Virus record (IMG/VR): IMGVR_UViG_2698536574_000031
Length of the DNA stretch: 38,122 bases
Source: a virus
Taxonomy: Duplodnaviria > Heunggongvirae > Uroviricota > Caudoviricetes
Reading direction: 5' to 3' (one strand)
Part shown: in pieces, positions 1,208-38,122 of the stretch
Numbering within the stretch: the stretch's first letter is position 1
Layout of the letters: every line of letters begins with the position of its first letter
Made by a program: the position numbers and the translations under genes
Notes under the pieces: generated by a model
What the model was told of the DNA's origin: nothing
The model's database searches: none
Seen by the model: only the letters and a program-made list of their open reading frames with translations

Positions 1208-1407
1208 GGCCGCATAACCTCCTGCTTTGTTGTTGATGCCTTTCTCATGCAATCGATCGACAAAAACGATCGATTCGATTTGTTTAATTGATACAACAAA
1301 TAGATTTAAAAGTCATCAACAATGATTCAGGACGGTGATTATTTACTTAAAGAAAACGAAGAGTTAGGTGGTGAAAACGATCATAAAATGATCATTTTAT
1401 TGACTTT

Positions 1408-1578
1408 TTATCCAGTGAATCTTGGGGTACACAGGATCTGCATCGCTATCCACATTGCAGTGGTGAAGTTTCGATCCTGTAATGTATTTTCATCAAGTCC
1501 TGAACGTAGCGCATTGATAATTTCTGCGCTTAATATTTCCAGACCTTTGGTATCGGGCTGTTTTTTGTTCTTGTCCAT
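1408..1578 (-). CDS. small hypothetical protein (56 aa, below ORF-track cutoff)
   Basis: Hand-translated: MDKNKKQPDTKGLEILSAEIINALRSGLDENTLQDRNFTTAMWIAMQILCTPRFTG*. ATG preceded by GAGGAAATAATC; sits just downstream of a hairpin terminator. Confidence 0.3.
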   Translation of the reverse strand: MDKNKKQPDTKGLEILSAEIINALRSGLDENTLQDRNFTTAMWIAMQILCTPRFTG

Positions 1579-1611
1579 GATTATTTCCTCTGACTGGTAT
1601 ATACATCGCCC

Positions 1612-1646
1612 ATGAAAATCAAACCGACAGGAGAAGCTGTCGGTTT
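1612..1646 (-). terminator. rho-independent terminator-like hairpin after ORF 1653..1898
   Basis: 10-bp perfect stem AAACCGACAG / CTGTCGGTTT (1621..1646) with 6-nt loop, followed on the minus strand by GATTTTCAT. Confidence 0.45.
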
Positions 1647-1652
1647 GTATTG

Positions 1653-1898
1653 TTACATCATGGCACTGTCAGTTCCGGGCTGAACCGGCTCTGGTTGCTC
1701 TACTGGTTGAGGCTCATTTTCCGTGCTGTTTTCAGCCGGAGAACGACCAACCATTCGGGCCAGCACTTCATCAACATATGCGTCGATTTGTGCCTCAAAA
1801 TCCTTGCGAACCTGCGCCTTCAGCACGCGGTTCACTTCTTCAGAATAAAGTGCCTGTTTGACAAGCTCTTCAGTAACCGTGCCTTTAATCTCTGGCAT
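1653..1898 (-). CDS. hypothetical protein (81 aa, charged/helical)
   Basis: ORF with strong RBS (AAAGGAGAATATT before ATG); the antisense + ORF 1650..2027 has a TTG start, no RBS and a low-complexity product. Confidence 0.5.
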   Translation of the reverse strand: MPEIKGTVTEELVKQALYSEEVNRVLKAQVRKDFEAQIDAYVDEVLARMVGRSPAENSTENEPQPVEQPEPVQPGTDSAMM

Positions 1899-1933
1899 GA
1901 ATATTCTCCTTTTGCAGGTATATTGCCCCGTTA

Positions 1934-2116
1934 TCAGAGCGGGGTCGGGTCGTTTGGGGATGACGGTGCCTGTGCTGTTTTACTGAGTTTTTCAGCTGCC
2001 GCATCATCAATTTTACGGCGAATATAATTTCTGATGACCTTATAACCGCCGCTCACCAGATATAACGCACTGACCACAGCGCAGAAATAAAGCAGCATTG
2101 TATGAACGAATGTCAT
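1934..2116 (-). CDS. small membrane protein (60 aa, one N-terminal TM helix)
   Basis: Hydrophobic N-terminus MLLYFCAVVSALYLVSGG followed by a basic stretch; RBS-like AAAGGTAAGG upstream. Confidence 0.4.
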   Translation of the reverse strand: MTFVHTMLLYFCAVVSALYLVSGGYKVIRNYIRRKIDDAAAEKLSKTAQAPSSPNDPTPL

Positions 2117-2228
2117 ATAACCTTACCTTTGATATTGACTACATAATTCGTTATCGGGTAAAAACATCGAAGCGACTGATAACCACTCCTTCGGGAGTAT
2201 TTTTATTTTCCTTTATGGGTTAGGTAGC

Positions 2229-2264
2229 TCCCGCCAGCCATATCATGACCGGCGGGATTTTTTT
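2229..2264 (+). terminator. hairpin plus T7 tract oriented for the + strand, abutting the esterase stop codon
   Basis: Stem TCCCGCC / GGCGGGA with 15-nt loop followed by TTTTTTT on the + strand; an A-tract precedes it on the minus strand, so it may work bidirectionally. Confidence 0.35.
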
Positions 2265-4302
2265 ATTCTGTTACCGCTTTTTTCACTTCCACCACAATGC
2301 TGTCAATCAGCACCGGGTAAGTTGCATTTTTGGTGATATCCGTTACGCGGAGTTTGTCCACCGGGAAAGTTCCTACTGGTGACTGCGTCAGGGTAAACGC
2401 GGCACCATCCTGACCATCAATAACCGGAATAACCTGAAGGCTGTTATTTCCTGCAAAACGGAAGGCCAGCGTATGCCATTCATTATCAAATGCACCAAAG
2501 GTTCCCAGTTTCTGGTTATTTGTTGCCACTTTTGCATTGTGGTACATCACATTCAGGTCTTTTGCGTCTGTCTGGATGTAGAACGATGCCAGCAGATTAT
2601 TCCCTGCATCCCCTGTCAGGGTGACACCCTGCGGCAGAGAGGAAACCGGCCAGTAAAGCGCCATGACATACTGGTTTGCCACCAGGTCGCCAGGTACTTT
2701 AAAACGACAACTGATTAAACCACCATTTTTCAGCAGTTCAGCACCAGTACCGGCATCATGATCCAGATACCAGGATGATTTACCTGTTTCCTTGGTCAGT
2801 TTCATTGCCTTACCACCTGTGCCTCCTGCATCACTGATAATTTCAGCTTTACCGCCAGCCGGCTCCCAGCCCTGGGCTTTCAGATTTCCTTCTGACTCAC
2901 TGACACGGTAAGACAGCAGTGTTGTGGTTACTGCTTCAGTTTCTGAAGGTGATGGCACTGGTGCTTCAGTTTCAGAAGATGGAACATCGGCTTTTACTGT
3001 GGTTCGCCCTGCATGAGTCAGAACAGCCGTGGCCAGACGGTCAGAAATAATACCCCGGCGCGCCCAGGCACTGAAATGGCTGGCCCGGTCCGCAGATGTC
3101 CAGGTAGCGGCACTGTTACGCCACGTTGAGCCGTAATAACCAATGGATTCAATATCCGGGTCTTCTGCCGGATTGTTGGTGGGTACATTCACGCCATTTT
3201 CATCTGTCATTAATGGAACGAAATGAATGTTTTTATCTGTTTTGTTTTTGTAGCCGCCATAGATTGCCTGGTATGCTGGTTCATTTTTCTGTTTCCAGAA
3301 ATACGTGGTATCGCCACAAATCCACGGAACGCCAGCAGCACTGCCACCGGTACACTGTTCCGCCTGTTCAGCCAGGTCTGCGCGGAATTTTTCCACCATC
3401 GCCAGAAACAGCGCAGAATGCTCCGTCGGCTTCGCATCAATATCAAACTCGCCCTGCATCCACACCACAGCAAGCAGGCGGTTTTTCGGGTTCTTCGCCA
3501 GTGCCGCTTTTGTCCGGCTGATTAAGTCCTTATACAGCGGCTTATCCACACCCCAGCGGGCTGAGTCCTCTGAAGCACCCGTGCTGTCACTGTACGTGCC
3601 GTCAGCACCCACCGTGAATGCAGAACCACCACGGCAGCAGGGAACCAGCAGAATCCCCGCATCTGCCGGAATAAACGGCAGCAGTTTTTTGGCAATGTGA
3701 AGCCCCTGACCCACGGTGCCATATTGCCCTTTAGCCACATCCGCTTTCGGGTGATTTTTTCCACTCATATCCTGCACATCATGCAGACAGTGGTCGGCCA
3801 GAATGATGTCGTTATACTGACAGGCTTTACCTCCCGGCGTGACTGTACTGCGACGGGCTAACTGCATAATACGCGGTTCGGGGCGGTCATATGTCTCCGG
3901 CAGTGGCAGACCTTCACCGTAAGCCATACCGTTTGACTGACCAGCAAGAACCACCACGTAATACCAGGAAGGGGAGCCGGAAGCAGTTTCATTTCCTGAC
4001 GGACGGGTATGTGTTTCAGCATTATCCCAGTCTGACGGTTCAGCAGTACCGGCAACATCAGCACTTAACGGAATGACCGCACCAATACCCGCTCCGGTAA
4101 TTTCCACACTCGGATCACCGGATACTGGCCTTACCCACAGGCAATCCCGGGTATTAAAACTGATGAGACAGTCAGCAAATGTCATTCCTCCTTTTGTTTC
4201 GGCCGGAGGAAAGGGAGCCTCAAGAAATGCCGCTGTACCACCGGAAACTTTAACAGTAAAGTTTCCGGGCATTGATGATAGTTGAACCCATTTGGACGTC
4301 AT
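2263..4302 (-). CDS. SGNH-hydrolase esterase, sialate O-acetylesterase (NanS/SASA)-like, with N-terminal extension and C-terminal lectin-like domain (679 aa)
   Basis: VVLAGQSNGMAYGEG matches the GQSN block of SASA/DUF303 carbohydrate esterases; about 100-aa N-terminal region and about 200-aa C-terminal Gly/Thr-rich beta-type region; co-directional with the late genes. Confidence 0.65.
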   Translation of the reverse strand: MTSKWVQLSSMPGNFTVKVSGGTAAFLEAPFPPAETKGGMTFADCLISFNTRDCLWVRPVSGDPSVEITGAGIGAVIPLSADVAGTAEPSDWDNAETHTRPSGNETASGSPSWYYVVVLAGQSNGMAYGEGLPLPETYDRPEPRIMQLARRSTVTPGGKACQYNDIILADHCLHDVQDMSGKNHPKADVAKGQYGTVGQGLHIAKKLLPFIPADAGILLVPCCRGGSAFTVGADGTYSDSTGASEDSARWGVDKPLYKDLISRTKAALAKNPKNRLLAVVWMQGEFDIDAKPTEHSALFLAMVEKFRADLAEQAEQCTGGSAAGVPWICGDTTYFWKQKNEPAYQAIYGGYKNKTDKNIHFVPLMTDENGVNVPTNNPAEDPDIESIGYYGSTWRNSAATWTSADRASHFSAWARRGIISDRLATAVLTHAGRTTVKADVPSSETEAPVPSPSETEAVTTTLLSYRVSESEGNLKAQGWEPAGGKAEIISDAGGTGGKAMKLTKETGKSSWYLDHDAGTGAELLKNGGLISCRFKVPGDLVANQYVMALYWPVSSLPQGVTLTGDAGNNLLASFYIQTDAKDLNVMYHNAKVATNNQKLGTFGAFDNEWHTLAFRFAGNNSLQVIPVIDGQDGAAFTLTQSPVGTFPVDKLRVTDITKNATYPVLIDSIVVEVKKAVTE

Positions 4303-4401
4303 AATAATCAGCCTGTTCCTGAATAAACTGAATTATCATATCCACAGACCGATAAACGCCATTTTGCGTTAATTCAGTAAAGGCCCAACAAAGAGAGCGT
4401 C

Positions 4402-4962
4402 TTATTTTTCCGAAACGCTCGCAGGATAATAACGATAAAGGGTTGAAAGACCGATATCAAAAATAAGTGCCACCTGTCTTCGACTGACACCCCCGGCCAG
4501 TAAACGCCCGACCTGCTCGTATTGTTCCTGCGTGAGACGGCGGGGTCTGCCGCCGGTTCGTCCCCTTTCACGGGCAGCTGCAAGACCAGCCCGTGTCCGT
4601 TCGACAATTAATTCACGCTCCATTTCTGCCAGCGCACCCATTATGTGAAAAAAGAAGCGCCCCATGGGGGTTGACGTATCAATGTTGTCAGTAAGACTAC
4701 GAAAATTTATCCCCTGTTGCTGTAATTCATCTGTCAGCGCAACAAGGTGGCGCATACTGCGCCCCAGCCTGTCCAGTTTCCAGACCATCAGCGTGTCACC
4801 GGGTTTTAGTTTCTTCAGTGCCCGCTTCAGTCCCGGCCGCTGTGTCGTTTTACCACTCATTTTGTCTTCAAAAATCTGCTCACATCCTGCACATTCCAGC
4901 GCATTTCTTTGTAAACCGGTGTTCTGGTCATTTGTTGATACGCGTATATAGCCAATCAGCAT
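4402..4962 (-). CDS. gin: Gin/Hin/Cin/Pin-family serine DNA invertase
   Basis: MLIGYIRVSTNDQNTGLQ... has the catalytic Ser at position 9-10 and a C-terminal HTH (GLSTLYRY), 186 aa; lies immediately outside a gix-like site. Confidence 0.9.
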   Translation of the reverse strand: MLIGYIRVSTNDQNTGLQRNALECAGCEQIFEDKMSGKTTQRPGLKRALKKLKPGDTLMVWKLDRLGRSMRHLVALTDELQQQGINFRSLTDNIDTSTPMGRFFFHIMGALAEMERELIVERTRAGLAAARERGRTGGRPRRLTQEQYEQVGRLLAGGVSRRQVALIFDIGLSTLYRYYPASVSEK

Positions 4963-5016
4963 GTATTTACCTTCCTTAAAAAGAGGTGGAAAAGCCTTTT
5001 AAAGCAGATATACGGC

Positions 5017-5042
5017 ATCCCTGAAACCTCGGTTTACGGGAT
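5017..5042. repeat. gix-like 26-bp invertase crossover site (gin-proximal)
   Basis: ATCCCTGAAACC TC GGTTTACGGGAT; its reverse complement shares a 17-bp core TCCCGTAAACCGAGGTT and central GA dinucleotide with the site at 6443..6468. Confidence 0.7.
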
Positions 5043-5396
5043 ACGGTAAACAGGGCCGCGAATGCCCTGCCATCAAACGGTACTGCTGTTGCAGCAAGCA
5101 GGCTGGCAAATGCCCGCAGAATCAATGGTGTCGCCTTTGACGGCACGCAGGATATAGACATTACGTCAGGAATGCCGGAATCAACGGCCAATCAGCGTTA
5201 TGTTACAGGGGTAAGACTGGGAGCGCAGGCATTAAGCGGCGGACTGGAATATAATTACTCCCTGTCATCAGGAAATGTGATTACCGGTTTTAAGACTGAC
5301 GGAGACTGGGAAATGCGTGGTGGTGATGACCGTGTTTATTACAGACAGATACAATATTGTATTAATGGGCATTGGGTATCCGCTGCAAGTATTTAA
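5025..5396 (+). CDS. alternative tail-fibre C-terminal cassette (S'v-like; no own start, would fuse to the constant S N-terminus after inversion)
   Basis: Open frame from the gix site: NLGLRDTVNRAANALPSNGTAVAASRLANARRINGVAFDGTQDIDITSGMPESTANQRYVTGVRLGAQ...YYRQIQYCINGHWVSAASI, homologous to the C-terminal 126 aa of the expressed fibre. Confidence 0.6.
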   Translation, partial: NLGLRDTVNRAANALPSNGTAVAASRLANARRINGVAFDGTQDIDITSGMPESTANQRYVTGVRLGAQALSGGLEYNYSLSSGNVITGFKTDGDWEMRGGDDRVYYRQIQYCINGHWVSAASI

Positions 5397-6456
5397 TTAA
5401 CGGGGGCATAGCACACAGCAGCCAGCATCTGAAATATGCGTTATTTCAGACAAGCATTGCCTGTATATGGCGATAGTATTATTCCTGTTTTTATCATTGA
5501 TTTACATGGTGATGTTTATGCAACTGATTAATGTCAAACGATATTACCCGAAAGACAAACCCTATGGTGAGGATGTTCAGTATTTCCAGAGTGAGGACGG
5601 AAGGGATTTTTATGAATCTATCCCGCTTTTTACAAAGAAATACAAACTCTGTATTTCGCCTGTAACGGGTATTATCTGCTCTGTTGCTGAAGATGTCTCT
5701 GCTTTATATCCGGCAGGTTTTACTGTTGTTGAAGTGGACGAACTGCCGGAAGGTGTGAATATTGACGGTAACTGGCAGTTTTCTGATGGCCTGATATCAA
5801 AGGTGCCGGTAAACTGGAAGACGGTTGCTGAAAAGCGTCGCTCATCGCTGCTCCAGGAAGCCAACGAAACCGTGGATGACTGGAAAACAGAATTAAAACT
5901 GGACATGATTAGCGATGAAAATAAATTACAGCTGACGCGCTGGATGGCGTATATCCGACAGCTTAAAGAAATGCACTTTAATGATATTGCCAGTGAGGGG
6001 CATTACCAGGCGATTCCCTGGCCGGAAAAACCGGAATAATTCAGAGGGTGCATTCAGCACCCTTTTCTGTGGTTTACACTGAACTTACCGTTCTCCAGGC
6101 ATTATTAATATAAATCTGAACCGGGCGATAATAGACCCCACCGATATTGTCCGCAGACCGGGAGCCGGTTTCCTGCACGTTAATACCGGAAAGCATACAA
6201 CCGGAAGGTGCGCTGTAATTCCATGACATTTCATTGCCTCCGGGTGAATGATAGCTCTGTGCTCCAAGCTGAACATTCTGTACATACCGGCCATCTGCGG
6301 TTGACTGCGTCATTCCTGACGTGATGTTGATATCCAGCGTTCCGTCAAAAGGAACACCATTAATATTTCTTGGGGTGGCGAGTCTGTTTGCTGCCACGGC
6401 GGTTCCAGCCGATGGCAGGGCATCAGCAGCCTTATTTACCGTTTCCCGTAAACCGA
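5029..6456. other. Gin-invertible tail-fibre segment (G-segment analogue, about 1.43 kb)
   Basis: Bounded by the two inverted gix-like sites; carries two opposed tail-fibre C-terminal cassettes and one tail-fibre assembly gene; the crossover dinucleotide lies in the same codon phase (CTC, Leu) in both cassettes. Confidence 0.65.
5467..6039 (+). CDS. tail-fibre assembly chaperone (Tfa/U-like)
   Basis: 190-aa ORF inside the invertible segment, downstream of and co-directional with the silent cassette; C-terminus ...QAIPWPEKPE is typical of Tfa proteins. True start uncertain (ATGs at 5467, 5506, 5512, 5518; none with a clear SD). Confidence 0.6.
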   Translation: MAIVLFLFLSLIYMVMFMQLINVKRYYPKDKPYGEDVQYFQSEDGRDFYESIPLFTKKYKLCISPVTGIICSVAEDVSALYPAGFTVVEVDELPEGVNIDGNWQFSDGLISKVPVNWKTVAEKRRSSLLQEANETVDDWKTELKLDMISDENKLQLTRWMAYIRQLKEMHFNDIASEGHYQAIPWPEKPE

Positions 6457-6985
6457 GGTTATCGATAAAGGTTCCTTTGTCCTGGATATCCGCGCCATTC
6501 TGGTCCCTGCGCAGGTAACGGTTATCACCTTCGCTCCTGCTGTAAACATCCAGATTATTACGGGCGGTTTCCGCATTCTCCAGGTCGGCAAGGTTCTGAT
6601 CCTTCGCCAGGGCATTAACGTCAGCGGGACCAAGACTGTTTTTTGTGGCAAGCGTCCCCAGACCAAGATAACCACGGGCCAGACGCTGGGCTTCCGCACC
6701 GGCATCAGCAATTTCTTTCAGGTTGTTTTTCCGGGAAAAGGCATTCGCAGCGATAATGGCTTTAATGGACAGCGTAAGCTGGTTTAACTGCGCCTTATCC
6801 GGCTGAATACTGGCTTCAGCCAGAATATTCAGCAGTTCGGCCTGGAGAATATTCAGCCAGTCCTGACCAATCCAGCTGATACCTTTTTGTCCGTCACCTT
6901 CGGTAAACCAGGTGGTGGTATTACTCTGCGCCGGAGCCAGTTCAGGCATATTCGCCACGCCGGAATTATTATCAACATGGAACAT
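6074..6985 (-). CDS. tail fibre protein S (constant N-terminal part plus currently expressed variable C-terminal cassette)
   Basis: Start MFHVDNNSG... at an ATG overlapping the upstream stop (TAATG) with AGGAG upstream; the gix-like site lies at codon 177. Confidence 0.8.
   Translation of the reverse strand: MFHVDNNSGVANMPELAPAQSNTTTWFTEGDGQKGISWIGQDWLNILQAELLNILAEASIQPDKAQLNQLTLSIKAIIAANAFSRKNNLKEIADAGAEAQRLARGYLGLGTLATKNSLGPADVNALAKDQNLADLENAETARNNLDVYSRSEGDNRYLRRDQNGADIQDKGTFIDNLGLRETVNKAADALPSAGTAVAANRLATPRNINGVPFDGTLDINITSGMTQSTADGRYVQNVQLGAQSYHSPGGNEMSWNYSAPSGCMLSGINVQETGSRSADNIGGVYYRPVQIYINNAWRTVSSV
6443..6468. repeat. gix-like 26-bp invertase crossover site (inside the tail-fibre gene)
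   Basis: TTCCCGTAAACC GA GGTTATCGATAA, inverted relative to 5017..5042 and close to the Mu gix / Salmonella hix type. Confidence 0.7.
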
Positions 6986-7545
6986 TAAATATTCTCCTCT
7001 TTGTGACTGTTTGCATACACGTAAATAAACGTCTGCCATGCAGGCTTATAACGGTTCAGAATACATTCCAGCGCACCACCCTCATAAATACGCAGCGGGG
7101 TGAGAATATCATCCAGCACATTCATATTCCGGTAGCCGGTTTCACTGTTTATCGTGACAATACTGACCCACTGTGAATCCGGTGATGGCTGAATATCTAT
7201 TTCATAACCAAACTCTGCCGCAAACCGGATATAAAATTCACGGTTAAGAGAGGGTTTCATCCGGTATTTATTCCCTGCATAACGCTGACGTTCCTGAATG
7301 GTTGCGCCGGTCATATCACATTCCGGTAACCCCAGATAACGCTCCCAGTCTTCCAGCAGCAGACGGGATGAATCAGGAAAACGTTCTGCCAGCATCTGGT
7401 TACCGGTCCAGGAAACACGCTCCGTGGAATGACTGAGGCCCAGGCACAAAGCCGCAAGAACGGATGACGGCCGCTTATCCCATGCCAGCCCGTCAGGCAG
7501 CAACTGCAACAGGGCGCGCTGATGCGGGGTCAGGGTTACAGCCAT
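6985..7545 (-). CDS. tail/baseplate protein (Mu gp48/R-like)
   Basis: 186 aa; position and size match Mu R; translationally coupled to S. Confidence 0.55.
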   Translation of the reverse strand: MAVTLTPHQRALLQLLPDGLAWDKRPSSVLAALCLGLSHSTERVSWTGNQMLAERFPDSSRLLLEDWERYLGLPECDMTGATIQERQRYAGNKYRMKPSLNREFYIRFAAEFGYEIDIQPSPDSQWVSIVTINSETGYRNMNVLDDILTPLRIYEGGALECILNRYKPAWQTFIYVYANSHKEENI

Positions 7546-28377: not shown

Positions 28378-28803
28378 TCAGAAAAGTGGCGGTTGCGTTC
28401 TTGCCAGATGCAGACGGCGCTGTTCGCGTATGACGGTATAAATCTGGGTTTCTGACATCCGGTAATGGCGGCGAAGGGATTCAATTTTCTCGCCCCGGTC
28501 CCAGCGCGAAAATATCTCATTGTTTCGCAGCTCGGCAAAGAGAGATTCCCCGACAGGCAGGTAATAACCCCGTCCGCCCATATAGGCTGCCTGAGCCGCA
28601 GCCACCTTGCGTGCCAGTTTACCGGCCAGTACCGGCTCAATCCCCTGACGCTGAAGTTCTGCGCCGGTGACTTCAACCAGTTCTGACAGGGTCCGCGGCC
28701 AGTTCTTTTTGAGAACATCATCAGGGATGTCATCAAGGCGGTCGATAAGGGCGTGCAGTTGCTCACTGTCACCACCAAACATGCTCATCTGAGTTTCTGC
28801 CAT
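28378..28803 (-). CDS. Mor/C-family transcriptional activator (single copy; sits at the C position before lys)
   Basis: 141 aa; C-terminal HTH ...LRRHYRMSETQIYTVIREQRR and central YYLPVG block; preceded by a terminator. Confidence 0.7.
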   Translation of the reverse strand: MAETQMSMFGGDSEQLHALIDRLDDIPDDVLKKNWPRTLSELVEVTGAELQRQGIEPVLAGKLARKVAAAQAAYMGGRGYYLPVGESLFAELRNNEIFSRWDRGEKIESLRRHYRMSETQIYTVIREQRRLHLARTQPPLF

Positions 28804-28835: not shown

Positions 28836-28868
28836 TTAAAATAAAAATCCCGCGTTGTGGCGGGATTT
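28836..28868 (-). terminator. rho-independent terminator after the GemA-like gene
   Basis: Stem AAATCCCGC / GCGGGATTT with 6-nt loop, followed on the minus strand by TTATTTTAAA. Confidence 0.5.
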
Positions 28869-28872
28869 GGGG

Positions 28873-29382
28873 TTAACGGGGAAGTGATTTTTCATACTGC
28901 CTGCAAACGGCGTCATACCCCATCAGCGTGCGTTCGGGCATTCCCATCGCGGCCAGCATTTTGCGGCGGTGCCATCGCTTGAGACGCTCCAGCACATCTG
29001 AGGCCAGGGCGGGGTGTTGCTCCAGCCACTGCCAGTTTGCCACACCTTCGCCGCCGTTCTGCGCGGCCGTCTGCGATTTCACCCAGCGGTTAAGGGCGGT
29101 TTCCGCACCATCAGAGATAAAGCCCTGCCGGTGCATTACCTTCCAGATGGCACGAATTCTGGCGGTCACCGTACCCGGTTTTAAGGCCCGGTTAACCGGC
29201 TTCTGGCGCACTTTAAAACCGCGTTTTTTGAAAACATCCAGCACGCGGGATAACTCATCCGCTGACATATCCCGGCAGCTGGTTTTGCCGGTGGCTGCCA
29301 GCAGCGCGGATGTATAAGTCTCATCATCCAGGGCAAGCTCGCGCTTTGCCACATGAATGGCGGATATCAGTTTTCCTCTCAT
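28873..29382 (-). CDS. GemA-like early regulatory protein (Mu gp16 family)
   Basis: 169 aa; N-terminus MRGKLISAIHVAKRELALDDETYTSALLAATGKTSCRDMSADELSRVL; position before Mor/C. Confidence 0.55.
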   Translation of the reverse strand: MRGKLISAIHVAKRELALDDETYTSALLAATGKTSCRDMSADELSRVLDVFKKRGFKVRQKPVNRALKPGTVTARIRAIWKVMHRQGFISDGAETALNRWVKSQTAAQNGGEGVANWQWLEQHPALASDVLERLKRWHRRKMLAAMGMPERTLMGYDAVCRQYEKSLPR

Positions 29383-29675
29383 ACCGTATTTACCTTTTTA
29401 CGGACATGGAAAGCCTTTTCTGCCTCATCCCACCGGGCATGGTGTGTTGGTGGAATAATCATTATGTGCCAGCCATCTCTGGTTGTTATTCGGCAGAAAA
29501 ATTCACCGCTATATAACACAATGGCCTGCTGAATGAGCGCATCAGCCGCCCGTTCAACCGGATGTCTTTTATCAAAAAAGAAGATGATTTTTCGACATAA
29601 CCACCGGGTAATAACAAATGCGCCGAAAAAGGATGTGATATATAAGCACCAGAACAACAGAGAACTATTGTCCAT
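29379..29675 (-). CDS. hypothetical membrane protein (98 aa)
   Basis: N-terminal TM LLFWCLYITSFFGAFVITRWL; AT-rich codon usage. Confidence 0.4.
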   Translation of the reverse strand: MDNSSLLFWCLYITSFFGAFVITRWLCRKIIFFFDKRHPVERAADALIQQAIVLYSGEFFCRITTRDGWHIMIIPPTHHARWDEAEKAFHVRKKVNTV

Positions 29676-29862
29676 TATCTTTCTCCTTATTCACTCTTCT
29701 GCGGCATTCGGCACAGTCATCAGGGCTTTCAAATGTATCCGGCTCGCGATTATGAGCCAGATATAACCACCGTCCACATATACTGATATTTTCGCCTGTT
29801 TTAAAAAAATGATGCTTCCTGGCCATTAGTGGCCTCGCCCATCCAGCGGGTAGACTATTCAT
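29665..29862 (-). CDS. hypothetical small Cys-containing protein (65 aa)
   Basis: ICGRW ... CAEC spacing suggests a zinc ribbon. Confidence 0.35.
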   Translation of the reverse strand: MNSLPAGWARPLMARKHHFFKTGENISICGRWLYLAHNREPDTFESPDDCAECRRRVNKEKDNGQ

Positions 29863-30190
29863 TTGCTTTATCCTCCATGCTGGACAGAATCATATGTATT
29901 AATGTCGGGCGTGGAGATATACGCATTTCATTAAGCGTCTGAAGGGCAGCAACAGCTGCCTGTTTATCGGTGCCTTTGGCTATCTCTGCAAGAGAATGCA
30001 CAATCCATAACGGACTTAACGCCACGGCTGAATCCAGAATCATGTCATCCATAATAATTTCTGGCATATCCCGCTTGTCACATTCTTTATCCATAAAAGA
30101 AACGATTTTTTCTGCATCTTCCGGTTTCATGCCTCCGGCGATGAGAATTTTACGATATTCATAAGACGATCTTAATTCAATACTCATCAT
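29855..30190 (-). CDS. hypothetical protein (111 aa)
   Basis: Tightly packed early-operon ORF; no recognisable motif. Confidence 0.4.
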   Translation of the reverse strand: MMSIELRSSYEYRKILIAGGMKPEDAEKIVSFMDKECDKRDMPEIIMDDMILDSAVALSPLWIVHSLAEIAKGTDKQAAVAALQTLNEMRISPRPTLIHMILSSMEDKANE

Positions 30191-30202
30191 TCACCTGCCT
30201 GT

Positions 30203-30571
30203 TTAATCAGTTTCCAGTGCTTTGCTACGGGCAACAGCCTCACACTCAAAAAATACCGACTCCGGCACACGTTCTTTTAATTCACGAACAAGGAAGTTAT
30301 TAACGCGCTCGTGACATCTTATATTTCTTTCCTTTTCCTCCTGGCGTAATACAGCAAGGCGGTATTCAACAGTCCGGCGTTGTTTCTGAAAGACAGCCAG
30401 TGCTTTTCTGGCAGAGTTACGCCATGTATCATCACCACAGGGTGCGTATTCAAGCTGAAATTTAATCTCTTCAATGGTTTCTTTTATTTTTGCCAGCAAG
30501 CTAAGACAGTCGCTGATTGTCTTCAGTTTTTCATTATCAATATAACTTCTCACGCATTCACCTCCCGTCAT
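30203..30571 (-). CDS. hypothetical protein (122 aa)
   Basis: Start taken at internal MTGGECVRSY... giving an ATGA junction with the upstream gene. Confidence 0.4.
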   Translation of the reverse strand: MTGGECVRSYIDNEKLKTISDCLSLLAKIKETIEEIKFQLEYAPCGDDTWRNSARKALAVFQKQRRTVEYRLAVLRQEEKERNIRCHERVNNFLVRELKERVPESVFFECEAVARSKALETD

Positions 30572-30879
30572 TCCGGTAAAGCTGAAATATGGCACCAGTG
30601 CGTCACCTGTCCGTCCTCATCTTCAAGGCAGTCTCCGGTTTCTTCATCAATAAAAAAGCCTTCATACCCCATATGGCCGATGCGCAGTTCCTGTTGGTCA
30701 CCATACTGAACAATCAGCACGACAGCCTCCATATCAGGCGGAAATGCGTCATCCAGTGAATGCCAGGGATAACCGCGCAAATCCCCGAAATAAACACCGG
30801 TCAGCGTTCCGCCACAAACCGACATTCCGGCGGCACATACCAGAGGCTCGTCTGATTCAACAAATAATGTCGTTATCAT
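30568..30879 (-). CDS. hypothetical acidic protein (103 aa)
   Basis: DEETGDCLEDEDGQ acidic patch; overlapping start/stop with neighbours. Confidence 0.4.
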   Translation of the reverse strand: MITTLFVESDEPLVCAAGMSVCGGTLTGVYFGDLRGYPWHSLDDAFPPDMEAVVLIVQYGDQQELRIGHMGYEGFFIDEETGDCLEDEDGQVTHWCHISALPE

Positions 30880-31427
30880 GGCATTAACTCCCGTAATACA
30901 ACATCTTCGGCAGTCCGGCGATGGTGATAAATAAAATTTACCGTACTCTCGGATAATTCAAATTTCTCGCCTATTTCCCGGAAGGTAAGACGTCGTGGTG
31001 ATTCAGCATCCCGTAATTCACGAATAAGACGAACATCATCATCAGATATACGGGTGAAGGGCAGCAATTCTCCGTATTTTTTCATGCTTACGCCAATATA
31101 TCGCGCCCGATTGTGGACAGAATCCCGGTCTCGCCCCAGATATTCTCCTATTTGCTTACCGGTCATCGTTCTGGCATTTTTTCGGATAAATTTATCTTCA
31201 TCATGTTTAAATCTTGGACGTTTGCATTTGAGCAACTCCGGGTAAGTGCCGCGTAATAAAACAATCCGGTGATGTACACCCCAGAAACTTCTTTTTACCC
31301 TGACAGCAATATCCTTAACCGGGGTGGATGGATAAAGCGCAATCAGCAGTGCATCTTCTTCAGGTGTCCACGCACGGACATGAGCGGGTGCACGGCCTTT
31401 TCTCCCCATGGGTTGTAATTTCATCAT
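30876..31427 (-). CDS. putative DNA-binding protein with three HTH-like repeats
   Basis: WTPEEDALLIALY (Myb/SANT-like), MTGKQIGEYLGRDRDSVHNRARYIG, and C-terminal LTFREIGEKFELSESTVNFIYHHRR resembling the Mor/C HTH. Confidence 0.45.
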   Translation of the reverse strand: MMKLQPMGRKGRAPAHVRAWTPEEDALLIALYPSTPVKDIAVRVKRSFWGVHHRIVLLRGTYPELLKCKRPRFKHDEDKFIRKNARTMTGKQIGEYLGRDRDSVHNRARYIGVSMKKYGELLPFTRISDDDVRLIRELRDAESPRRLTFREIGEKFELSESTVNFIYHHRRTAEDVVLRELMP

Positions 31428-31430
31428 GCA

Positions 31431-31946
31431 TCACCCCCTGACTCGCTTTTCGGCAGCATAAAACTCATCAGGCAGAATTTCGGTCATTCTCTGTTTTGCG
31501 GGTTTTACGCCGCACTGGAGATAAATCACATCGTCAACGCAGAACCACTTCACGGGACCATGCAATATTGCTGAGAAGTCAATGCCCAGCCAGAACAACA
31601 GCGCATCGGTTCTGGCATACGTGACGGGCGAATATTCAAACCACAGAATATTCAGTTCATCAGAGGCAACACGCAGGGCTTTAGGGATACGTGACGTGCG
31701 CGGTGTGCAGCTCCAGCCATTCGACGCAGTTGGTTTTCGCCATAAATCACGATGAAAAGGATATTTGTCATCCGTAAAACTCAGCCCCTTAAAACAAAAG
31801 CCACTGATATCGGATACAAATACCGACCGGCAATCAACATTCAGCACAGCCTCAAGGCGCTTTGCCTCATCCTTAACTTTCTGGCAGTCCTGCTGATATT
31901 TTTGCCACGCGGCCAGCGCGGCAGGGTTCGATGTTTTAAAGAACAT
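31431..31946 (-). CDS. hypothetical protein (171 aa)
   Basis: Early-operon ORF; no recognisable motif. Confidence 0.4.
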   Translation of the reverse strand: MFFKTSNPAALAAWQKYQQDCQKVKDEAKRLEAVLNVDCRSVFVSDISGFCFKGLSFTDDKYPFHRDLWRKPTASNGWSCTPRTSRIPKALRVASDELNILWFEYSPVTYARTDALLFWLGIDFSAILHGPVKWFCVDDVIYLQCGVKPAKQRMTEILPDEFYAAEKRVRG

Positions 31947-32479
31947 TACGCCACCTCCGCAGAAATCGCGGCCGGTGCCGCTGTCCGGTCAACAATCAGG
32001 TAACGCAGAACATGTCCGGTGATATTCCAGCCGCTTAAACCGCAGATAATGACACCCAGGCGTATGTCGATATACGCCATCACAAACTGGGGTACACCTT
32101 CTTTCATGGCCTGCTCATCAACTTCAGCCACCACATAAACGGTTTCACAGGTCAGTACGCCCTGAGCAAATTCCCACGCCATCGACGGAATATCATGCCC
32201 CTCAATCCACGGCAGGGATTTTCTGAAGCTGCACCACTGAACATCATCAGCCGCAGATTCCTGGCTGCATTTGCGACGAACCGGCTGCACCGGGCGGGGA
32301 CGCGGAATATCATAAAAACCGTTACATTCCGTCAGCACGCCTGCATCAACCGCATCACGCAGAAAATAAACCATGGAGGATGGCGGCATATTCATTTTTT
32401 CAGCCAGAACACCGCAGGTCAGACGTCCGTAAATACGCAGCCAGTTTTTAACCCCTTCAAGCACTTTTGCATCAATCAT
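31946..32479 (-). CDS. hypothetical protein with N-terminal winged-helix-like segment (177 aa)
   Basis: LTCGVLAEKMNMPPSSMVYFLRDAVDAGVL. Confidence 0.4.
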   Translation of the reverse strand: MIDAKVLEGVKNWLRIYGRLTCGVLAEKMNMPPSSMVYFLRDAVDAGVLTECNGFYDIPRPRPVQPVRRKCSQESAADDVQWCSFRKSLPWIEGHDIPSMAWEFAQGVLTCETVYVVAEVDEQAMKEGVPQFVMAYIDIRLGVIICGLSGWNITGHVLRYLIVDRTAAPAAISAEVA

Positions 32480-32482
32480 GAA

Positions 32483-33073
32483 TTATTCCTCCGTTATTGC
32501 GATGAATTCGGAATGCTTGATTGCCATCAATGACGGATGCAGCTTTTCAGGGGAAAAGGCATTATCTGATTCACCGACAGGAATACGAACCACAACAGCC
32601 CCTTTGTCGCCATAGAACCCGGCAGAAGAGCACGCCATAACTGTGCGGCCGTTGCTGACACCAAAAACCTCAAAATAGCAGTCCAGTTTATTAACCATCC
32701 AGGTACTGAATGACGGAAGCTGTTTTAACTTCTCGTTTAAGATATTCAGTGCTTTGTTCAGTTTTTTTCCCTCTCTGAATCTGCGGTCGGGCTTAACTGA
32801 AAATAAAACGCGGCCATCTTCATCAAATTTATCAGACAGCACCCGCTTATTTCTTCCGACATCAACATCCTCATGAACCAGTATTGATGTGACAAAAATA
32901 TGCCCACAACACCAGAAGTAAAGGTATCCTTTAGCTCTATGATTACTGAGAAAATCATCAATCAATTTCTTGCGCTCCCTGCCAGCGCAATCAAGCCATT
33001 CCCTGTGATAATGACGGGAATCGCGCTCATTCATTTTAAAATAACGATATTTTATACTCATGATATGCCTCAT
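32483..33073 (-). CDS. hypothetical protein, lower-GC accessory gene (196 aa)
   Basis: Visibly AT-rich relative to the structural genes; no recognisable motif. Confidence 0.45.
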   Translation of the reverse strand: MRHIMSIKYRYFKMNERDSRHYHREWLDCAGRERKKLIDDFLSNHRAKGYLYFWCCGHIFVTSILVHEDVDVGRNKRVLSDKFDEDGRVLFSVKPDRRFREGKKLNKALNILNEKLKQLPSFSTWMVNKLDCYFEVFGVSNGRTVMACSSAGFYGDKGAVVVRIPVGESDNAFSPEKLHPSLMAIKHSEFIAITEE

Positions 33074-33145: not shown

Positions 33146-33676
33146 TTATTTATTCAGTCCGGCGTCCTGTTCAAAAGGCTCGACATGAAAACTTTCAGCG
33201 CCTTTATTCACCTTAATACCGGCAATCCCTTTCACCGCATCCGGCTCTGCCAGGACAGCTTGCTTATTCACTTCCTCTTTCGTGCGGATGAAGCGCTCAA
33301 GCCCCATACGACGCAGCATTTCAATCACACCTTCCACATCACGACTGACGCTGCATGATGGATTTCCCAGCCGCCATGACACCGTTCCGGTGGTCAGATT
33401 GGCAGTTTTGGTTTCGCCGCCGTTCGTCAGCTCATTGCGGTTGGTTTTACACCAGTCATGAATCCCTTTAAAAAGCACTTTGATTTCTTTTTTAAGGTTT
33501 TCAATCTGCGGCGTATAACGGGCGGTGATTTCTGCCACTTCATCATTCATTGCCGTTTCCAGGCGCAGCGCCTCTCGCTGAATATCGCCCAGGGTGCGGA
33601 TATCGCGGCTGACTTCTTCGCGGGTCTGCGGTGCAGCCTCGGCTGCGGCCTTTAATTTTGTAACACGTTTAACCAT
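33146..33676 (-). CDS. gam: Gam-like host-nuclease inhibitor (DNA-end binding)
   Basis: 176 aa from internal MVKRVTKLK (AAGGAAA upstream); blocks GDIQREALRLETAMNDEVAEIT, ELTNGGETKTANLTTGTVSWR and FIRTKEEVNKQAVL recalled as matching Mu Gam. Confidence 0.8.
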   Translation of the reverse strand: MVKRVTKLKAAAEAAPQTREEVSRDIRTLGDIQREALRLETAMNDEVAEITARYTPQIENLKKEIKVLFKGIHDWCKTNRNELTNGGETKTANLTTGTVSWRLGNPSCSVSRDVEGVIEMLRRMGLERFIRTKEEVNKQAVLAEPDAVKGIAGIKVNKGAESFHVEPFEQDAGLNK

Positions 33677-33984: not shown

Positions 33985-34257
33985 TTACCCCTGCTGATTA
34001 AATTCATTACCTTTAATAACCCCGGAACTCATGTTCATATCTTTCATGAGCGCTCTGGCTTTCATTGCCACAAGTTCAGCAAAGCCTCTGCTTTCCGCGA
34101 GCATAACCACCCCAAAAATCATGGCGGGTCCATCACCTTTCTGCTTTATCCCGGTTGAACGTATGTCCAGACTTACCCCCATGCGCACTGTTCCATCAGC
34201 GTTTTTATGGATAACGTGCTCCTTGTATTCGAAAATAATGCGTACGACTTTACTCAT
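33985..34257 (-). CDS. hypothetical protein, tandem paralogue A
   Basis: 90 aa; paralogous N-terminus with the downstream gene. Confidence 0.45.
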   Translation of the reverse strand: MSKVVRIIFEYKEHVIHKNADGTVRMGVSLDIRSTGIKQKGDGPAMIFGVVMLAESRGFAELVAMKARALMKDMNMSSGVIKGNEFNQQG

Positions 34258-34535
34258 CCTCTGGTCCTCGTTCTGTTTGGATAACTGACCCGGCGTCTGA
34301 CCTCACGGCAGAACCGAATCATGGCATTAAAGGCTTCTTCCTCCGTCACCGCTTCCGGTATCCCCGGAACCAGTAACTGCTCCTGTTCATCACGTCCATG
34401 ACGCGCCATAACCTCAATCACATGCCGTACCGTGGCAGGCTTTCCGGCAACTATCGGCAATGCACCTTCCGGCAGGACGTAACCAAACTCAATAAGACCA
34501 CTCGACCACGCCCATGCAATGAGATTTTTTTTCAC
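34254..34535 (-). CDS. hypothetical early protein (93 aa)
   Basis: Overlapping start/stop within early operon. Confidence 0.4.
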   Translation of the reverse strand: MKKNLIAWAWSSGLIEFGYVLPEGALPIVAGKPATVRHVIEVMARHGRDEQEQLLVPGIPEAVTEEEAFNAMIRFCREVRRRVSYPNRTRTRG

Positions 34536-34536
34536 C

Positions 34537-34803
34537 TCACACCTCCCAGTAAACTGTGCAGCCGCTGATGCGGGTGGCCTTCACACGGCGGCGCAGGCCG
34601 TTGGTCTGTATGGTGATTTCAATTTCACCGGTTCCCTGCACGTTGCCTACCGGCGGCGTGGTTTTCAGTGCAAAACGTTGTGGGTAGCGCTTACTGCGTT
34701 CCAGTACCGCACCGGCAAGTTCGGTCAGACGGCGCGCGCTGTTCAGGGAGTCGAATAAATTCATTTTGTTACCGCAGGATTGCATATTCATATAACACCT
34801 CAT
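34537..34803 (-). CDS. hypothetical early protein (88 aa; at the kil position)
   Basis: Position immediately after B as in Mu; no motif recognised. Confidence 0.4.
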   Translation of the reverse strand: MRCYMNMQSCGNKMNLFDSLNSARRLTELAGAVLERSKRYPQRFALKTTPPVGNVQGTGEIEITIQTNGLRRRVKATRISGCTVYWEV

Positions 34804-35031
34804 TTAGCTGACTTGTTTCGCACCAACAGAACGGCATATTCCGCTGTAAACTTCTGTCGCACCTTCGCGATCAAGTCCGGCAGATATCACCATTCGTGTG
34901 CGGTCATTAAATTCAAAAAGTAAATCGCCACATTCTTTATTTTCGGCCAGTGAAATCACCTTCACGTTATCGAAATTAACCAGGTAAAAGCGTCCGTAAA
35001 TATCAGGAATATAAAATACCGCCATAATCAC
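34804..35031 (-). CDS. hypothetical early protein (75 aa)
   Basis: ATGA overlap with the B stop. Confidence 0.4.
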   Translation of the reverse strand: MIMAVFYIPDIYGRFYLVNFDNVKVISLAENKECGDLLFEFNDRTRMVISAGLDREGATEVYSGICRSVGAKQVS

Positions 35032-35960
35032 ACCTGTGAGAGTAATTCAGGGTTGGTATAAACCTCTTTAAAGGCCGCATTAATATGTTTTTCTGTCAGC
35101 GCCGCACCTTCACCGCTGGCGGTGAGCCACGCCTGGTTAAGCGTATGTGTCAGAACGCGTAACGCTCCCGGCTTTTCAGCGATAGCCTGCATGACGGCCA
35201 GCTCGGCCTCACCACTGATACCCCATGCCCTGGCAATGGCCAGCACATCCGCCTTTTTGGCCTTGCGAAGTTGTTTTGTACGGGCAAGACGGCTGAACAG
35301 GCGCGATAAATCATCAAAGGCGCGGCGTCCACCTTTAAACAATCCGCGCGGGTTACCAATAAGCACCATCCCGATCCCCGTGGCGTCCTGAATTGCCCGG
35401 AGTTGCTCCAGACCGTCAATACCAAGATGATCCGCCTCATCCACAATCACCAGTCCACGCGTTCCCATCAGGCGACGGCGGATGGCGCGGGATAATGCCC
35501 CTTTGTTCGCGCGGGTGTAATCAATCCCCAGCGCATCGGCCAGCTCCAGCAGACACTCCGTGACGCTGGAGTGCGCGGGTGACAGGGTGATCATCCAGGT
35601 GTTTGGTTGCTCCTGGCAGTAATTACGGGCGGTGGCCGTTTTACCTACCCCCGGCACGCCCACAATGACGTTAATACAGCCCATCAGGCGAACCGCCTGA
35701 AACAGTGCGCGCAGCTCCTGAACTGTCTGCGTTTCCACAAACTGCGGCGGTTCCGGCAGTGCGCTTTGTTTATTCCAGTTCTCATACCAGGAACGCAGGG
35801 AAGCAGCCACAGCGGCGTTATCGCCTTTATATTTCCCCTTGCGGAAAGCCGATAATGTGCCGTCGGAAATTCCCGCCTCTCTGGCGATGGCATACTGCGT
35901 CAGTACGCCGCCATCAATAAGTTCATCAATGGTCTTGATTACATCGTTAATATCAGTCAT
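35028..35960 (-). CDS. B: MuB-like AAA+ ATPase, transposition target DNA activator
   Basis: 310 aa; N-terminal HTH region then Walker A GVPGVGKT and Walker B LVIVDEADHL; directly downstream of the transposase. Confidence 0.85.
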   Translation of the reverse strand: MTDINDVIKTIDELIDGGVLTQYAIAREAGISDGTLSAFRKGKYKGDNAAVAASLRSWYENWNKQSALPEPPQFVETQTVQELRALFQAVRLMGCINVIVGVPGVGKTATARNYCQEQPNTWMITLSPAHSSVTECLLELADALGIDYTRANKGALSRAIRRRLMGTRGLVIVDEADHLGIDGLEQLRAIQDATGIGMVLIGNPRGLFKGGRRAFDDLSRLFSRLARTKQLRKAKKADVLAIARAWGISGEAELAVMQAIAEKPGALRVLTHTLNQAWLTASGEGAALTEKHINAAFKEVYTNPELLSQV

Positions 35961-36031: not shown

Positions 36032-38122
36032 TCAGGCCAGCGGGTCATTTTCTTTTAATTTCGCTTCCAGCAACTGCAATCCCCGCTGGAAATTACGCTC
36101 GTATTCTTCATCAGGTTCATCGTCAGCGACCGGTTGCTGAACGGTCACCGTATTACCCACAGGGCGGTATATGTTTTCCAGCCAGGGCTCCTGCGGCTTG
36201 TGCTCCAGCACGTTGACAACCTCATCCTCGGCATCACGGATTTTTTCCTCTGCGCGTTTACGCATGCCTTTAAGGCGTTGCTGCTGTTTGTAGTATTCCG
36301 CGCTAACCGGGAAGGCTTCGCGTTTATTACCGTCCCATACCGCCTCGCAAATCACGCTGCCATCCAGGCGACGTACGGTAATTCGTTCGGCATCATGAAT
36401 GTCATAGCTGATAAGCACCTTACGACCATGCTCGTCACGCAGCTCGGGCGCGTAGTAAATATTATTCAGCCAGCGTATTTCACAGCGTCTTACAGGGCGT
36501 TCCACCATCGGCCGGAACATATCCCGCAGCTCAACATCGGACAGCCATTCAATTTCCGTGTCCTCTTCCGCCAGGCGTTTTTTTCTGAACTCCGCCGGGC
36601 TGTAATGCTTGCCGTTCGGCTTCACCGGTAATTCATCGTGCGGCCGGTTGTTGTACCACTCAACACCGTCACGAATGGCATCAATCAGTTCAGACCAGGA
36701 CGGTAAATCACGCATCGCTGACTGCTGCCGGGCGTTCAGCCGTTTGCCCTGTTGCAGGGCAGTAAATGCCGAGCGTAAATCGCGGTTGGTTTTGCGTAAC
36801 GTCTCGCGATCTGCACCTTTCCCGAAATAGGTGCGGTATTTACGGGCTATGCGCATCGGTAATGTGCGGTTAAGCCGTTCGATAATGCCTCGTCCCTGCG
36901 GATTACCGGCAATCCCGGTCGGGTGATTAATCCCCAGTCGCGGCAGTATCCCCACAACCTCCTTATCCAGGATGTCGGCGGTTTCCCCGGAGCCGTTATC
37001 CGAGTAATACAGAAACGGTTTGCCGTGATGGCGAATGCCGTGCTGTATGGCACCGGCTACGGCGAAAACATTTTCAGCCAGGTCAAGGCTCCAGCCCACC
37101 ACAAAGCGCGTGCCACCGTCGATAACAAAGGTCACTTCCGGTGCAAATGGCCGACCGTGAACCGGGTGTGCGCATTTCATCTTCATGCCGTGACCGTCAC
37201 CAATCCAGACATAATTCACCGGCATTCTGGACCAGTCGCGGCGCGTGAATCCCTCAAGCTGACGGTATTCACTGCCTGTCACCCGGCCTTTTTGTTTCAC
37301 CACTTCCGGCAGTTTCTTCATTGCGCGGCGAATGGTGTCATAAGAGGGCATGATATCGAGCATATAAGGCTCATCAGCGTGCCGGAGCCGCCATTCAGCA
37401 ACAAAATCCTCGTAAGCCTCGGTCATTGGTCGGCCGTTTGACTGGCGATACTGCGCCAGAAATTCGGGCAGCCAGTTAATATCTTCGGCTTTTATTTCCT
37501 GGCGTTTACCCGGTGCCAGTAAAAGCAGGCGTTCAGCGGCGTTCTGTGCCTTGTTAAAGGCCGCAATCCATCGCTTCAGCGTGATTTCACTCAACGCACG
37601 GCTGTTTCCCTTTTTGGCGTTCGCCGTCTCAACCATTGCCACAATGCGCTCGTCCAGCTGTGAACGTGCCAGGTTGTCAACGATAAACCGGATAGCCTTC
37701 GCGCAGCTGAAACCGGGTTGTTGCGCGACTTTCATCACTTCGCTGACGATCGCGATTCGTGCATCAGCCACCTGGCGCTGGTTTTCAGTCAGGGCATTGA
37801 GGCGTTCGACCATCAGTTGTGGTGATCCGCGATATGCCTCCACCGCATCAACCACGTCAGATGAGCGTCTGGCCTTTGTCACCACCGGAGCCGGTGATTC
37901 ATCGGCTTTTTGCGTCATCAGTTGCAGGGCATAACGTTCACGTAATGCCTGCTGCGTCACTTCAGGTAAACAGTCGATGCTGTATTCAGTTGCTTTAGAG
38001 CCTGAGCGACGACGGGAACAACAGCTTTTCCCTTGTACGTAACGTTGTAATGCCTGGCGAATACCTTTTGTTGTAGCAGGCATTCCGGGCGCGCCAATCA
38101 GTTCTTTTGCAATGACATACAT
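36032..38122 (-). CDS. A: MuA-like DDE transposase; start codon at the window edge
   Basis: 696 aa; N-terminal end-binding region MYVIAKELIGAPGMPATTKGIRQALQ aligns with the recalled start of MuA; central retroviral-integrase-like catalytic core. Confidence 0.9.
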   Translation of the reverse strand: MYVIAKELIGAPGMPATTKGIRQALQRYVQGKSCCSRRRSGSKATEYSIDCLPEVTQQALRERYALQLMTQKADESPAPVVTKARRSSDVVDAVEAYRGSPQLMVERLNALTENQRQVADARIAIVSEVMKVAQQPGFSCAKAIRFIVDNLARSQLDERIVAMVETANAKKGNSRALSEITLKRWIAAFNKAQNAAERLLLLAPGKRQEIKAEDINWLPEFLAQYRQSNGRPMTEAYEDFVAEWRLRHADEPYMLDIMPSYDTIRRAMKKLPEVVKQKGRVTGSEYRQLEGFTRRDWSRMPVNYVWIGDGHGMKMKCAHPVHGRPFAPEVTFVIDGGTRFVVGWSLDLAENVFAVAGAIQHGIRHHGKPFLYYSDNGSGETADILDKEVVGILPRLGINHPTGIAGNPQGRGIIERLNRTLPMRIARKYRTYFGKGADRETLRKTNRDLRSAFTALQQGKRLNARQQSAMRDLPSWSELIDAIRDGVEWYNNRPHDELPVKPNGKHYSPAEFRKKRLAEEDTEIEWLSDVELRDMFRPMVERPVRRCEIRWLNNIYYAPELRDEHGRKVLISYDIHDAERITVRRLDGSVICEAVWDGNKREAFPVSAEYYKQQQRLKGMRKRAEEKIRDAEDEVVNVLEHKPQEPWLENIYRPVGNTVTVQQPVADDEPDEEYERNFQRGLQLLEAKLKENDPLA

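Follow-up and report, generated by a model that had tools for sequence, protein, structure and literature searches.

In phage Mu, the interval between gam and gemA carries the semi-essential early (SEE) genes gp11 to gp14 and gp54 (formerly E10 to E15). These genes are annotated as hypothetical; to our knowledge, they have gone without an assigned function for decades, and SEE functions such as arm have not been tied to a gene. Here we analyze the equivalent interval of a Caudoviricetes genome, IMG/VR record IMGVR_UViG_2698536574_000031, within a stretch of 38,122 nucleotides (nt) that we call the window. At 29379 to 33073 on its minus strand lie nine head-to-tail open reading frames (ORFs; o1, next to gam, to o9, next to gemA), which share position, strand and operon context with the Mu SEE genes and, like them, are annotated as hypothetical. 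An initial annotation, made by eye from the letters, had picked out this block as the most likely place in the window for an undescribed system. We consider it probable instead that the nine genes form that end of a Mu-type early operon which lies farther from the promoter, the SEE region of an Sp18/SfMu-like transposable Escherichia coli prophage, and that the block is a mosaic of early accessory genes that evolve independently, and not a single system.

The block lies between A/B (with kil and gam) and gemA/mor on one strand. Read along the minus strand, the genes are A, B, five small ORFs that include a Kil homolog and a member of phrog_1518, gam, the nine ORFs, gemA, mor and lysozyme, and the order A-B-kil-like-gam-block-gemA-mor, all on the minus strand here, is that of Mu. 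Two of the nine products are full-length orthologs of Mu SEE proteins: o2 is 69% identical to Mu gp11 and scores 137.2 bits against Pfam Gp11_C (PF25754; gathering threshold 27) over the full domain (1-78), and o3 is 54% identical to Mu gp12 over 169 amino acids (aa), its assignment to PF26885 coming from the precomputed annotation of a 95%-identical cluster representative and of all hits. Gene order and orthologs thus bear out the initial annotation in placing nine genes between gemA and gam, in the semi-essential early region of a Mu-like phage. Only gp11 and gp12 are clear Mu orthologs, and both are uncharacterized, so that the block is not a set of well-characterized Mu proteins under other names.

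The locus also departs from Mu. Five genes occupy 1.9 kb in Mu as against nine in 3.7 kb here, with o1 (a DUF5420-family protein) and o5 to o9 having no Mu counterpart. The helix-turn-helix (HTH) gene o4 is related to Mu gp9/E8, with 32% identity over residues 66-166 of its product; it is longer, encodes three repeats and lies downstream of gp12, whereas gp9/E8 lies upstream of gam. In SfMu and the Yersinia Mu-like phages (vB_YpM_5/6, Tongde), DUF5420 and then gp11 (then gp12) follow directly after gam, as in the window, and a joined tblastn match runs to query residue 1058, within o7; unlike the window, these phages lack o4, o5, o6, o8 and o9, carry the shorter DUF5420 allele type and show protein identities of about 25 to 55%.

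Comparison among relatives resolves the block into two layers. With gemA as anchor, 34 related viral contigs were fetched, and the gam-gemA interval was typed in the 26 that span it and in Mu (n = 27). The constant layer keeps the order DUF5420-gp11-gp12-triple-HTH: gp11 and gp12 are present in all 27 loci, the HTH gene in 26, and DUF5420 was called in 22. The distal layer comprises at least four alternative cassette sets, namely (i) o5-o6-o7-o8-o9, (ii) a 61-aa gene, an o7-like gene, o8 and o9, (iii) an o5-like gene, Mu gp13-like and gp14-like genes and a 51-aa gene, and (iv) o5, o6, o7 and an 86-aa gene; in some close relatives of the prophage, Mu gp13/gp14 homologs thus replace o6 to o9. 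Members of these sets assort separately, o5 occurring without o6, o7 without o8, and o9 without o7 and o8; among the relatives, o6 is found only alongside o5 and o8 only alongside o7, o5 is missing from about one-third, and o7 is present in 19 of the 27 loci. The interval measures 2.9 to 3.8 kb in the relatives, well above its length in Mu. The combination seen in the window, the long o1 allele with o5 to o9, recurs at no other locus among the 26 from IMG/VR and 5426 complete E. coli genomes, 232 of which contain block-related DNA; the best single place in the complete genomes covers 84% of the block, and an Stx1a (Shiga toxin 1a) phage record accounts for the other 68%. The pattern suggests that two common types recombined to give the window, and that cassettes are still being exchanged.

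This distribution bears on whether the nine genes, or the quartet DUF5420-gp11-gp12-HTH, could be one co-functioning multiprotein system, for instance an anti-defense or host-takeover machine, which we judge unlikely. Such a system, whose parts would need to be produced together, would suit the packing of the block, which is as tight as initially described: junctions between o1 and o9 run from -11 to +14 nt, overlapping or nearly abutting throughout, and stop and start overlap by 4 to 11 nt at four of them and by 1 nt at another. It would also suit the invariant gp11-gp12-HTH order with DUF5420 called in most loci, the adjacency of DUF5420 and gp11 in SfMu and the Yersinia phages as well, and the presence of two paralogs, DUF5420 and gp12, on either side of gp11. 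However, tight packing is usual in phage early operons regardless of function, o5 to o9 assort separately and are replaced as whole sets, and the quartet comes apart outside the lineage. Mu lacks DUF5420 beside its gp11-gp12 pair and carries its HTH gene upstream of gam; SfMu has DUF5420-gp11-gp12; in Yersinia phage Tongde, DUF5420 and gp11 are present and gp12 was not detected; and the neighbors of gp12 homologs in lambdoid, P4-like and other settings are unrelated. Because o5 to o9 assort separately and gp12 homologs elsewhere keep unrelated company, we favor a mosaic early operon. The undescribed system of the initial annotation is not supported by this comparison, and all nine products fall into catalogued PHROG families.

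Table 1. Positions of the nine-gene block (o1 to o9), its boundary genes and other early genes in the window.
Feature	Position	Strand	Product	Family or homology
Transposase A	36032-38122	minus		
B	35028-35960	minus		
Kil-like ORF	34537-34803	minus		phrog_2679
gam	33146-33676	minus	Upstream boundary gene	54% identity to Mu Gam; phrog_491 'Mu Gam-like end protection', 1e-66
o1	32483-33073	minus	DUF5420-family protein; ORF 196 aa, 192 aa from M5 at 33061	phrog_2260, 1e-36
o2	31946-32479	minus	Ortholog of phage Mu gp11, 177 aa	Gp11_C domain
o3	31431-31946	minus	Ortholog of phage Mu gp12, 171 aa	Phage_Mu_Gp12 (PF26885)
o4	30876-31427	minus	Basic protein (isoelectric point, pI, 10.1), three HTH-like repeats, 183 aa	phrog_323 'transcriptional regulator, D5-like', 7e-59
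o5	30568-30879	minus	Acidic protein (pI 4.05), 103 aa; variable cassette	phrog_6925
o6	30203-30553	minus	116 aa, GTG start; variable cassette	phrog_6158, 8e-56
o7	29855-30190	minus	Acidic protein (pI 4.9), 111 aa; variable cassette	phrog_1988, 8e-45
o8	29665-29862	minus	65 aa, putative His-Cys3 zinc binding; variable cassette	phrog_2358
o9	29379-29675	minus	98 aa, one N-terminal hydrophobic segment resembling a transmembrane (TM) helix; variable cassette	phrog_17269
gemA	28873-29382	minus	Downstream boundary gene, gp16 family	43% identity to Mu GemA; phrog_286
mor	28378-28803	minus		

The nine ORFs are real genes under purifying selection, because a Shine-Dalgarno (SD)-like motif precedes each start, the Prokaryotic Genome Annotation Pipeline (PGAP) calls the identical nine coding sequences in a 97.7% identical E. 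coli prophage (eight as hypothetical, one as 'DNA-binding protein'), all distinct alleles of all nine are intact in the relatives, and the ratio of nonsynonymous to synonymous polymorphism (pN/pS) is 0.04 to 0.38 per gene. That some of them might have arisen by chance in an AT-rich spacer, or be pseudogenes in decay there, as the shortness of several (65-116 aa) and their lack of a Pfam family could suggest, is next to impossible to reconcile with these observations and with PHROG matches of E ≤ 1e-32 for every one. Two starts deserve comment. That of o1 is most likely M5, since the PHROG alignment and the database homologs, which carry the name 'DUF5420 family protein', correspond to the 192-aa form. 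That of o6 is the GTG at 30553 and not the codon at 30595: a strong GGGAGGTGA lies upstream, PGAP start and SD motif agree, and the phrog_6158 alignment begins at residue 15 of the longer ORF. At the distal end, the o9 stop overlaps the start of gemA, labeled 'gp16 family protein' in a related genome annotation, by 4 nt.

The block is AT-richer than the structural genes, as first noticed by eye: its GC content is 0.461 (46.1%) as against 0.571 (57.1%) across positions 7500-29378. Nowhere else in the window does GC content fall as low over 3.7 kb: 0.4% of all 3695-nt segments are equally low, and none of these lies outside the block; the right-end accessory region (1-7500) has a GC content of 0.48, so that low GC is not unique in kind to the block. 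This composition, the TM-like segment and two divergent alleles of o9, and the frequent carriage of exclusion genes by prophages would be in keeping with a defense or moron island that benefits the lysogen from its own promoters, for example through superinfection exclusion by o9. We give this idea little credence. The nine proteins match no defense model in PADLOC-DB v2, where the only hit is a marginal one of the o4 HTH to a homing-endonuclease model (E 0.006). Promoter-like and terminator-like sites are not in excess inside the block: a consensus scan found 5 promoter-like sites against 6.9 expected, an uninformative result, and a terminator scan did no better than on shuffled sequence. Moreover, all the genes point the same way as the early operon in which they sit, between gam and gemA, and the Mu early operon is repressed in lysogens. 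Other searches for signals in the DNA gave nothing beyond chance: an Rfam scan of the whole window returned no RNA family, repeats in the block are short two-copy matches of the kind expected at random, and folding of the gam-o1 spacer gave z = -0.12.

Within the constant quartet, profile comparisons join the first gene to the third. The C-terminal 112 residues of o1 match Pfam DUF5420 with 51.6 bits (gathering cut-off 26). In hhalign comparisons, the DUF5420 and gp12 families aligned end to end with 94.6% probability (E 6.8e-8) when the broadest alignments were used; the probability had risen from 7% with thin alignments, an inconclusive value, through 75% as the alignments were broadened. 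The two were always aligned end to end, pairing an N-terminal (Y/F)-(Y/F)-K motif and a C-terminal E-I-x-x-S-E-F motif, the latter almost invariant as E-I-x-x-(S)-E-F across both families. DUF5420 is thus a remote homolog of gp12, and gp11 stands between two distant paralogs in the block. The gp12 structure is predicted with high confidence (pLDDT, the predicted local distance difference test score, 96.9); PDB sequence and gp12-profile searches gave no significant match for gp12, and its model had no solved structural relative. Among relatives, the o1 slot is dimorphic, with 192/196-aa and 180-aa alleles that are only about 23 to 25% identical, a pattern typical of diversifying or frequency-dependent selection. 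We also observed that the two DUF5420 alleles share the slot after gam in prophages that are otherwise more than 90% identical.

The gp12 family extends well beyond Mu-like phages. Searched with the gp12 profile, 1.84 billion cluster representatives yielded only 192 relatives (E ≤ 0.001), nearly all full-length members being about 165 to 200 aa long and aligned end to end with the profile; the superfamily with DUF5420 also reaches virulent Klebsiella phages. Five distant members lie, respectively, in a lambdoid prophage right after a CI-like repressor (early-left operon), in a P4/P2-like element with Ogr/Delta, primase and integrase, in an ERF-recombinase early region, on a contig where DUF6012, an AAA ATPase and DnaB helicase are encoded close by, and downstream of a resolvase-family gene on a short contig. 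Their neighbors include no family common to each other or to the block. Because the neighbors share no family, gp12 is taken as a general, self-contained gene of phage early/replication regions, and not part of a Mu-specific complex. A conserved gp12 partner in other phages was also sought by comparing 20 neighbor proteins with all the block proteins and profiles, and this idea was dropped, the only match being a marginal one between o5 and a DUF551-like protein.

The other two members of the quartet are predicted to bind nucleic acids. The N terminus of gp11 resembles a winged helix; the gp11 model, built on an alignment that held no sequence less than 59% identical to the query, is poor, and our reading is confined to the N-terminal domain. 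The HTH matches of o4 fall at about residues 19-57, 74-116 and 130-167, in agreement with the multi-HTH protein that had been spotted by eye.

The distal cassettes contain the acidic protein, the putative zinc ribbon and the membrane protein of the initial annotation, which we identify with o5, o8 and o9. The C-terminal half of o5 resembles DUF551 below threshold (13.4 bits against a threshold of 22; E 0.15; 60 of 68 profile positions). DUF551, a domain of unknown function described as portable, occurs in the cryptic-prophage protein YfdS and in an Ea22 variant of an Stx phage, where it lies within the acidic C-terminal domain (PMC10834534, PMC4776307). A relation of o5 to Gp11_C was considered and rejected, since hhalign showed none. 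Neither o5 nor the other acidic protein, o7, has a Pfam or PDB sequence match to DNA-mimic families of the Ocr or ArdA type. In o6 we found no TM segment and no match to a family of known function; a homolog is present in the HK97-like Escherichia phage Fraca, just upstream of xis/int.

The putative zinc ligands of o8, His18, Cys29 and a C-x2-C pair, are kept in three homologs, the C-x2-C register of the alignment having been corrected by eye. One homolog lies among the early genes of Shigella phage Sf11, another in Klebsiella phage vB_Ko_K70PH128C1 (2492-3458). The latter, 59 to 63% identical, immediately precedes a DNA methyltransferase gene and overlaps its start; this hints at a possible link, in some phages, between methyltransferases and the small, putatively zinc-binding o8 family. 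The hydrophobic segment of o9 spans residues 5-23 (Kyte-Doolittle 19-residue maximum 1.82), and its two alleles are about 51% identical.

Searches across all nine proteins returned families and no functions. All PHROG families concerned are of 'unknown function' save phrog_323. Neither Pfam, NCBIfam, PADLOC, PHROGs nor PDB assigns a function to any of the nine; in particular, the NCBIfam scan gave nothing meaningful, Pfam at E ≤ 10 gave only the o5-DUF551 resemblance for the small proteins, and PDB sequence searches gave nothing significant. Profile searches, which the initial annotation had recommended for each ORF, delivered Pfam families for o1 to o3 and PHROGs for all, though no function from any match. 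Its description of the genes as unknown holds insofar as no family or structure database assigns them a function, but it had missed the relations to gp11, gp12, DUF5420 and gp9/E8. Exact sequences of seven of the nine proteins are already public, each on 11 to at least 1000 E. coli contigs, under the names hypothetical, DUF5420 and 'AsnC family', all nine carry hypothetical annotations in hundreds of E. coli genomes, and a literature search under WP accessions, DUF5420 or Mup11-14 names turned up nothing relevant. The nine genes, which belong to catalogued families and sit in a very common prophage of E. coli, are uncharacterized but not undescribed.

No new system is revealed here, and nothing in the block should surprise phage specialists. 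What the analysis offers is a map of this region in the common Mu-like prophages of E. coli (Shiga toxin-producing strains, STEC), in which lineage-constant genes are told apart from swappable ones, together with the union of DUF5420 and gp12 in one superfamily of unsolved fold, whose gp12 branch is an early gene found generally in temperate phages. What novelty is left resides in this superfamily and in the acidic proteins o5 and o7, any of which might prove to be a new anti-defense or takeover factor. It is conceivable, if doubtful, that at least one of these proteins founds a new class of early phage effectors; the best candidate would be gp12/DUF5420, possibly as an inhibitor of a host nuclease or defense, or else o5/o7 with an anti-restriction or anti-defense role.

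Known early genes of other phages suggest how the two layers might work. Mu Kil acts on FtsZ, and Gam acts on RecBCD. Like these two, Mu E6/gnarl2 and Pseudomonas DMS3 Aqs1 are small early proteins that each act alone on one host target, and they provide a model for o5 to o9; the targets listed for such single-protein effectors are nuclease ends, envelope sugar metabolism and the type IV pilus. The analogy is one of position and size, no sequence or fold similarity to the block proteins having been found. E6 lies in the same operon of Mu and is the host-modifying factor gnarl2 (bioRxiv 10.1101/2023.04.06.535777). Lambda and Stx-phage genes of the exo-xis and b regions (e.g., Ea22) are likewise small, mosaic, early, nonessential and shuffled between phages, and further points of likeness are the acidity of o5 with its sub-threshold DUF551 resemblance and the gp12 homolog that a lambdoid prophage carries in its corresponding early-left operon. 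In contrast, the Ea22 coiled-coil signature is absent, and the phage is transposable and not lambdoid.

We propose that the first layer, the quartet kept throughout the lineage, serves as a DNA-directed core of the early lytic program. It would combine at least two nucleic acid binders, gp11 through its winged helix and o4 through its HTH repeats, with DUF5420 and gp12, remote paralogs that share a fold specific to phages and without a solved relative. Its role might be regulation or the support of replicative transposition, like the arm function mapped genetically in the Mu SEE region. The second layer, o5 to o9, would consist of cassettes swapped by recombination, with relatives in early operons of unrelated temperate phages, each encoding a single-protein host-interaction factor (takeover, anti-defense or exclusion) made briefly after induction. 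Both layers would be co-transcribed early from Pe, which, with ner and c, is located outside the window. An anti-defense or host-takeover role, also raised by the initial annotation, is suggested by the position of the genes. Several points weigh against the reading of the block as a mosaic with these two roles. No function could be assigned to any of the nine genes, and the split into a DNA-directed core and host-interaction cassettes is an inference. Pfam HTH matches of o4 (AsnC-type, sigma-70 region 4, Myb) are weak, all below gathering scores. Tight translational coupling is also compatible with co-function of neighbors, and the constancy of the quartet in the lineage may leave room for a functional module of those four genes. 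The promoter consensus scans, finally, are uninformative on internal promoters.

Several observations concern the surroundings of the block. Upstream of gam, next to the Kil homolog, a 93-aa phrog_1518 protein ('host nuclease inhibitor') is encoded on the minus strand at 34254-34535, making it a candidate for a second nuclease inhibitor beside Gam in the early region. Downstream, a 9-bp GC-rich hairpin followed by a T-run (28845-28868, minus strand) lies in the 69 nt that separate the stop of gemA from the start of mor. In the Mannheimia Mu-like phage 3927AP2, a rho-independent terminator is annotated at the corresponding site behind gemA; the hairpin suggests partial termination of the early transcript ahead of mor.

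The right end of the prophage encodes a C-5 cytosine DNA methylase (Pfam DNA_methylase, 1.6e-42), whose gene is cut by the window start (1-1053, minus strand). It lies at roughly the position of mom in Mu and likely has a self-protection or anti-restriction function. The same low-GC end encodes, at 2263-4302 on the minus strand and adjoining the tail-fiber genes, a 679-aa protein that combines a SASA sialate O-acetylesterase-type domain with DUF6645. A Gin-like serine invertase gene (Resolvase and HTH_7) lies beside an oppositely oriented tail-fiber assembly gene (4402-4962, minus strand; 5467-6039, plus strand), which implies an invertible host-range switch like the Mu G segment.

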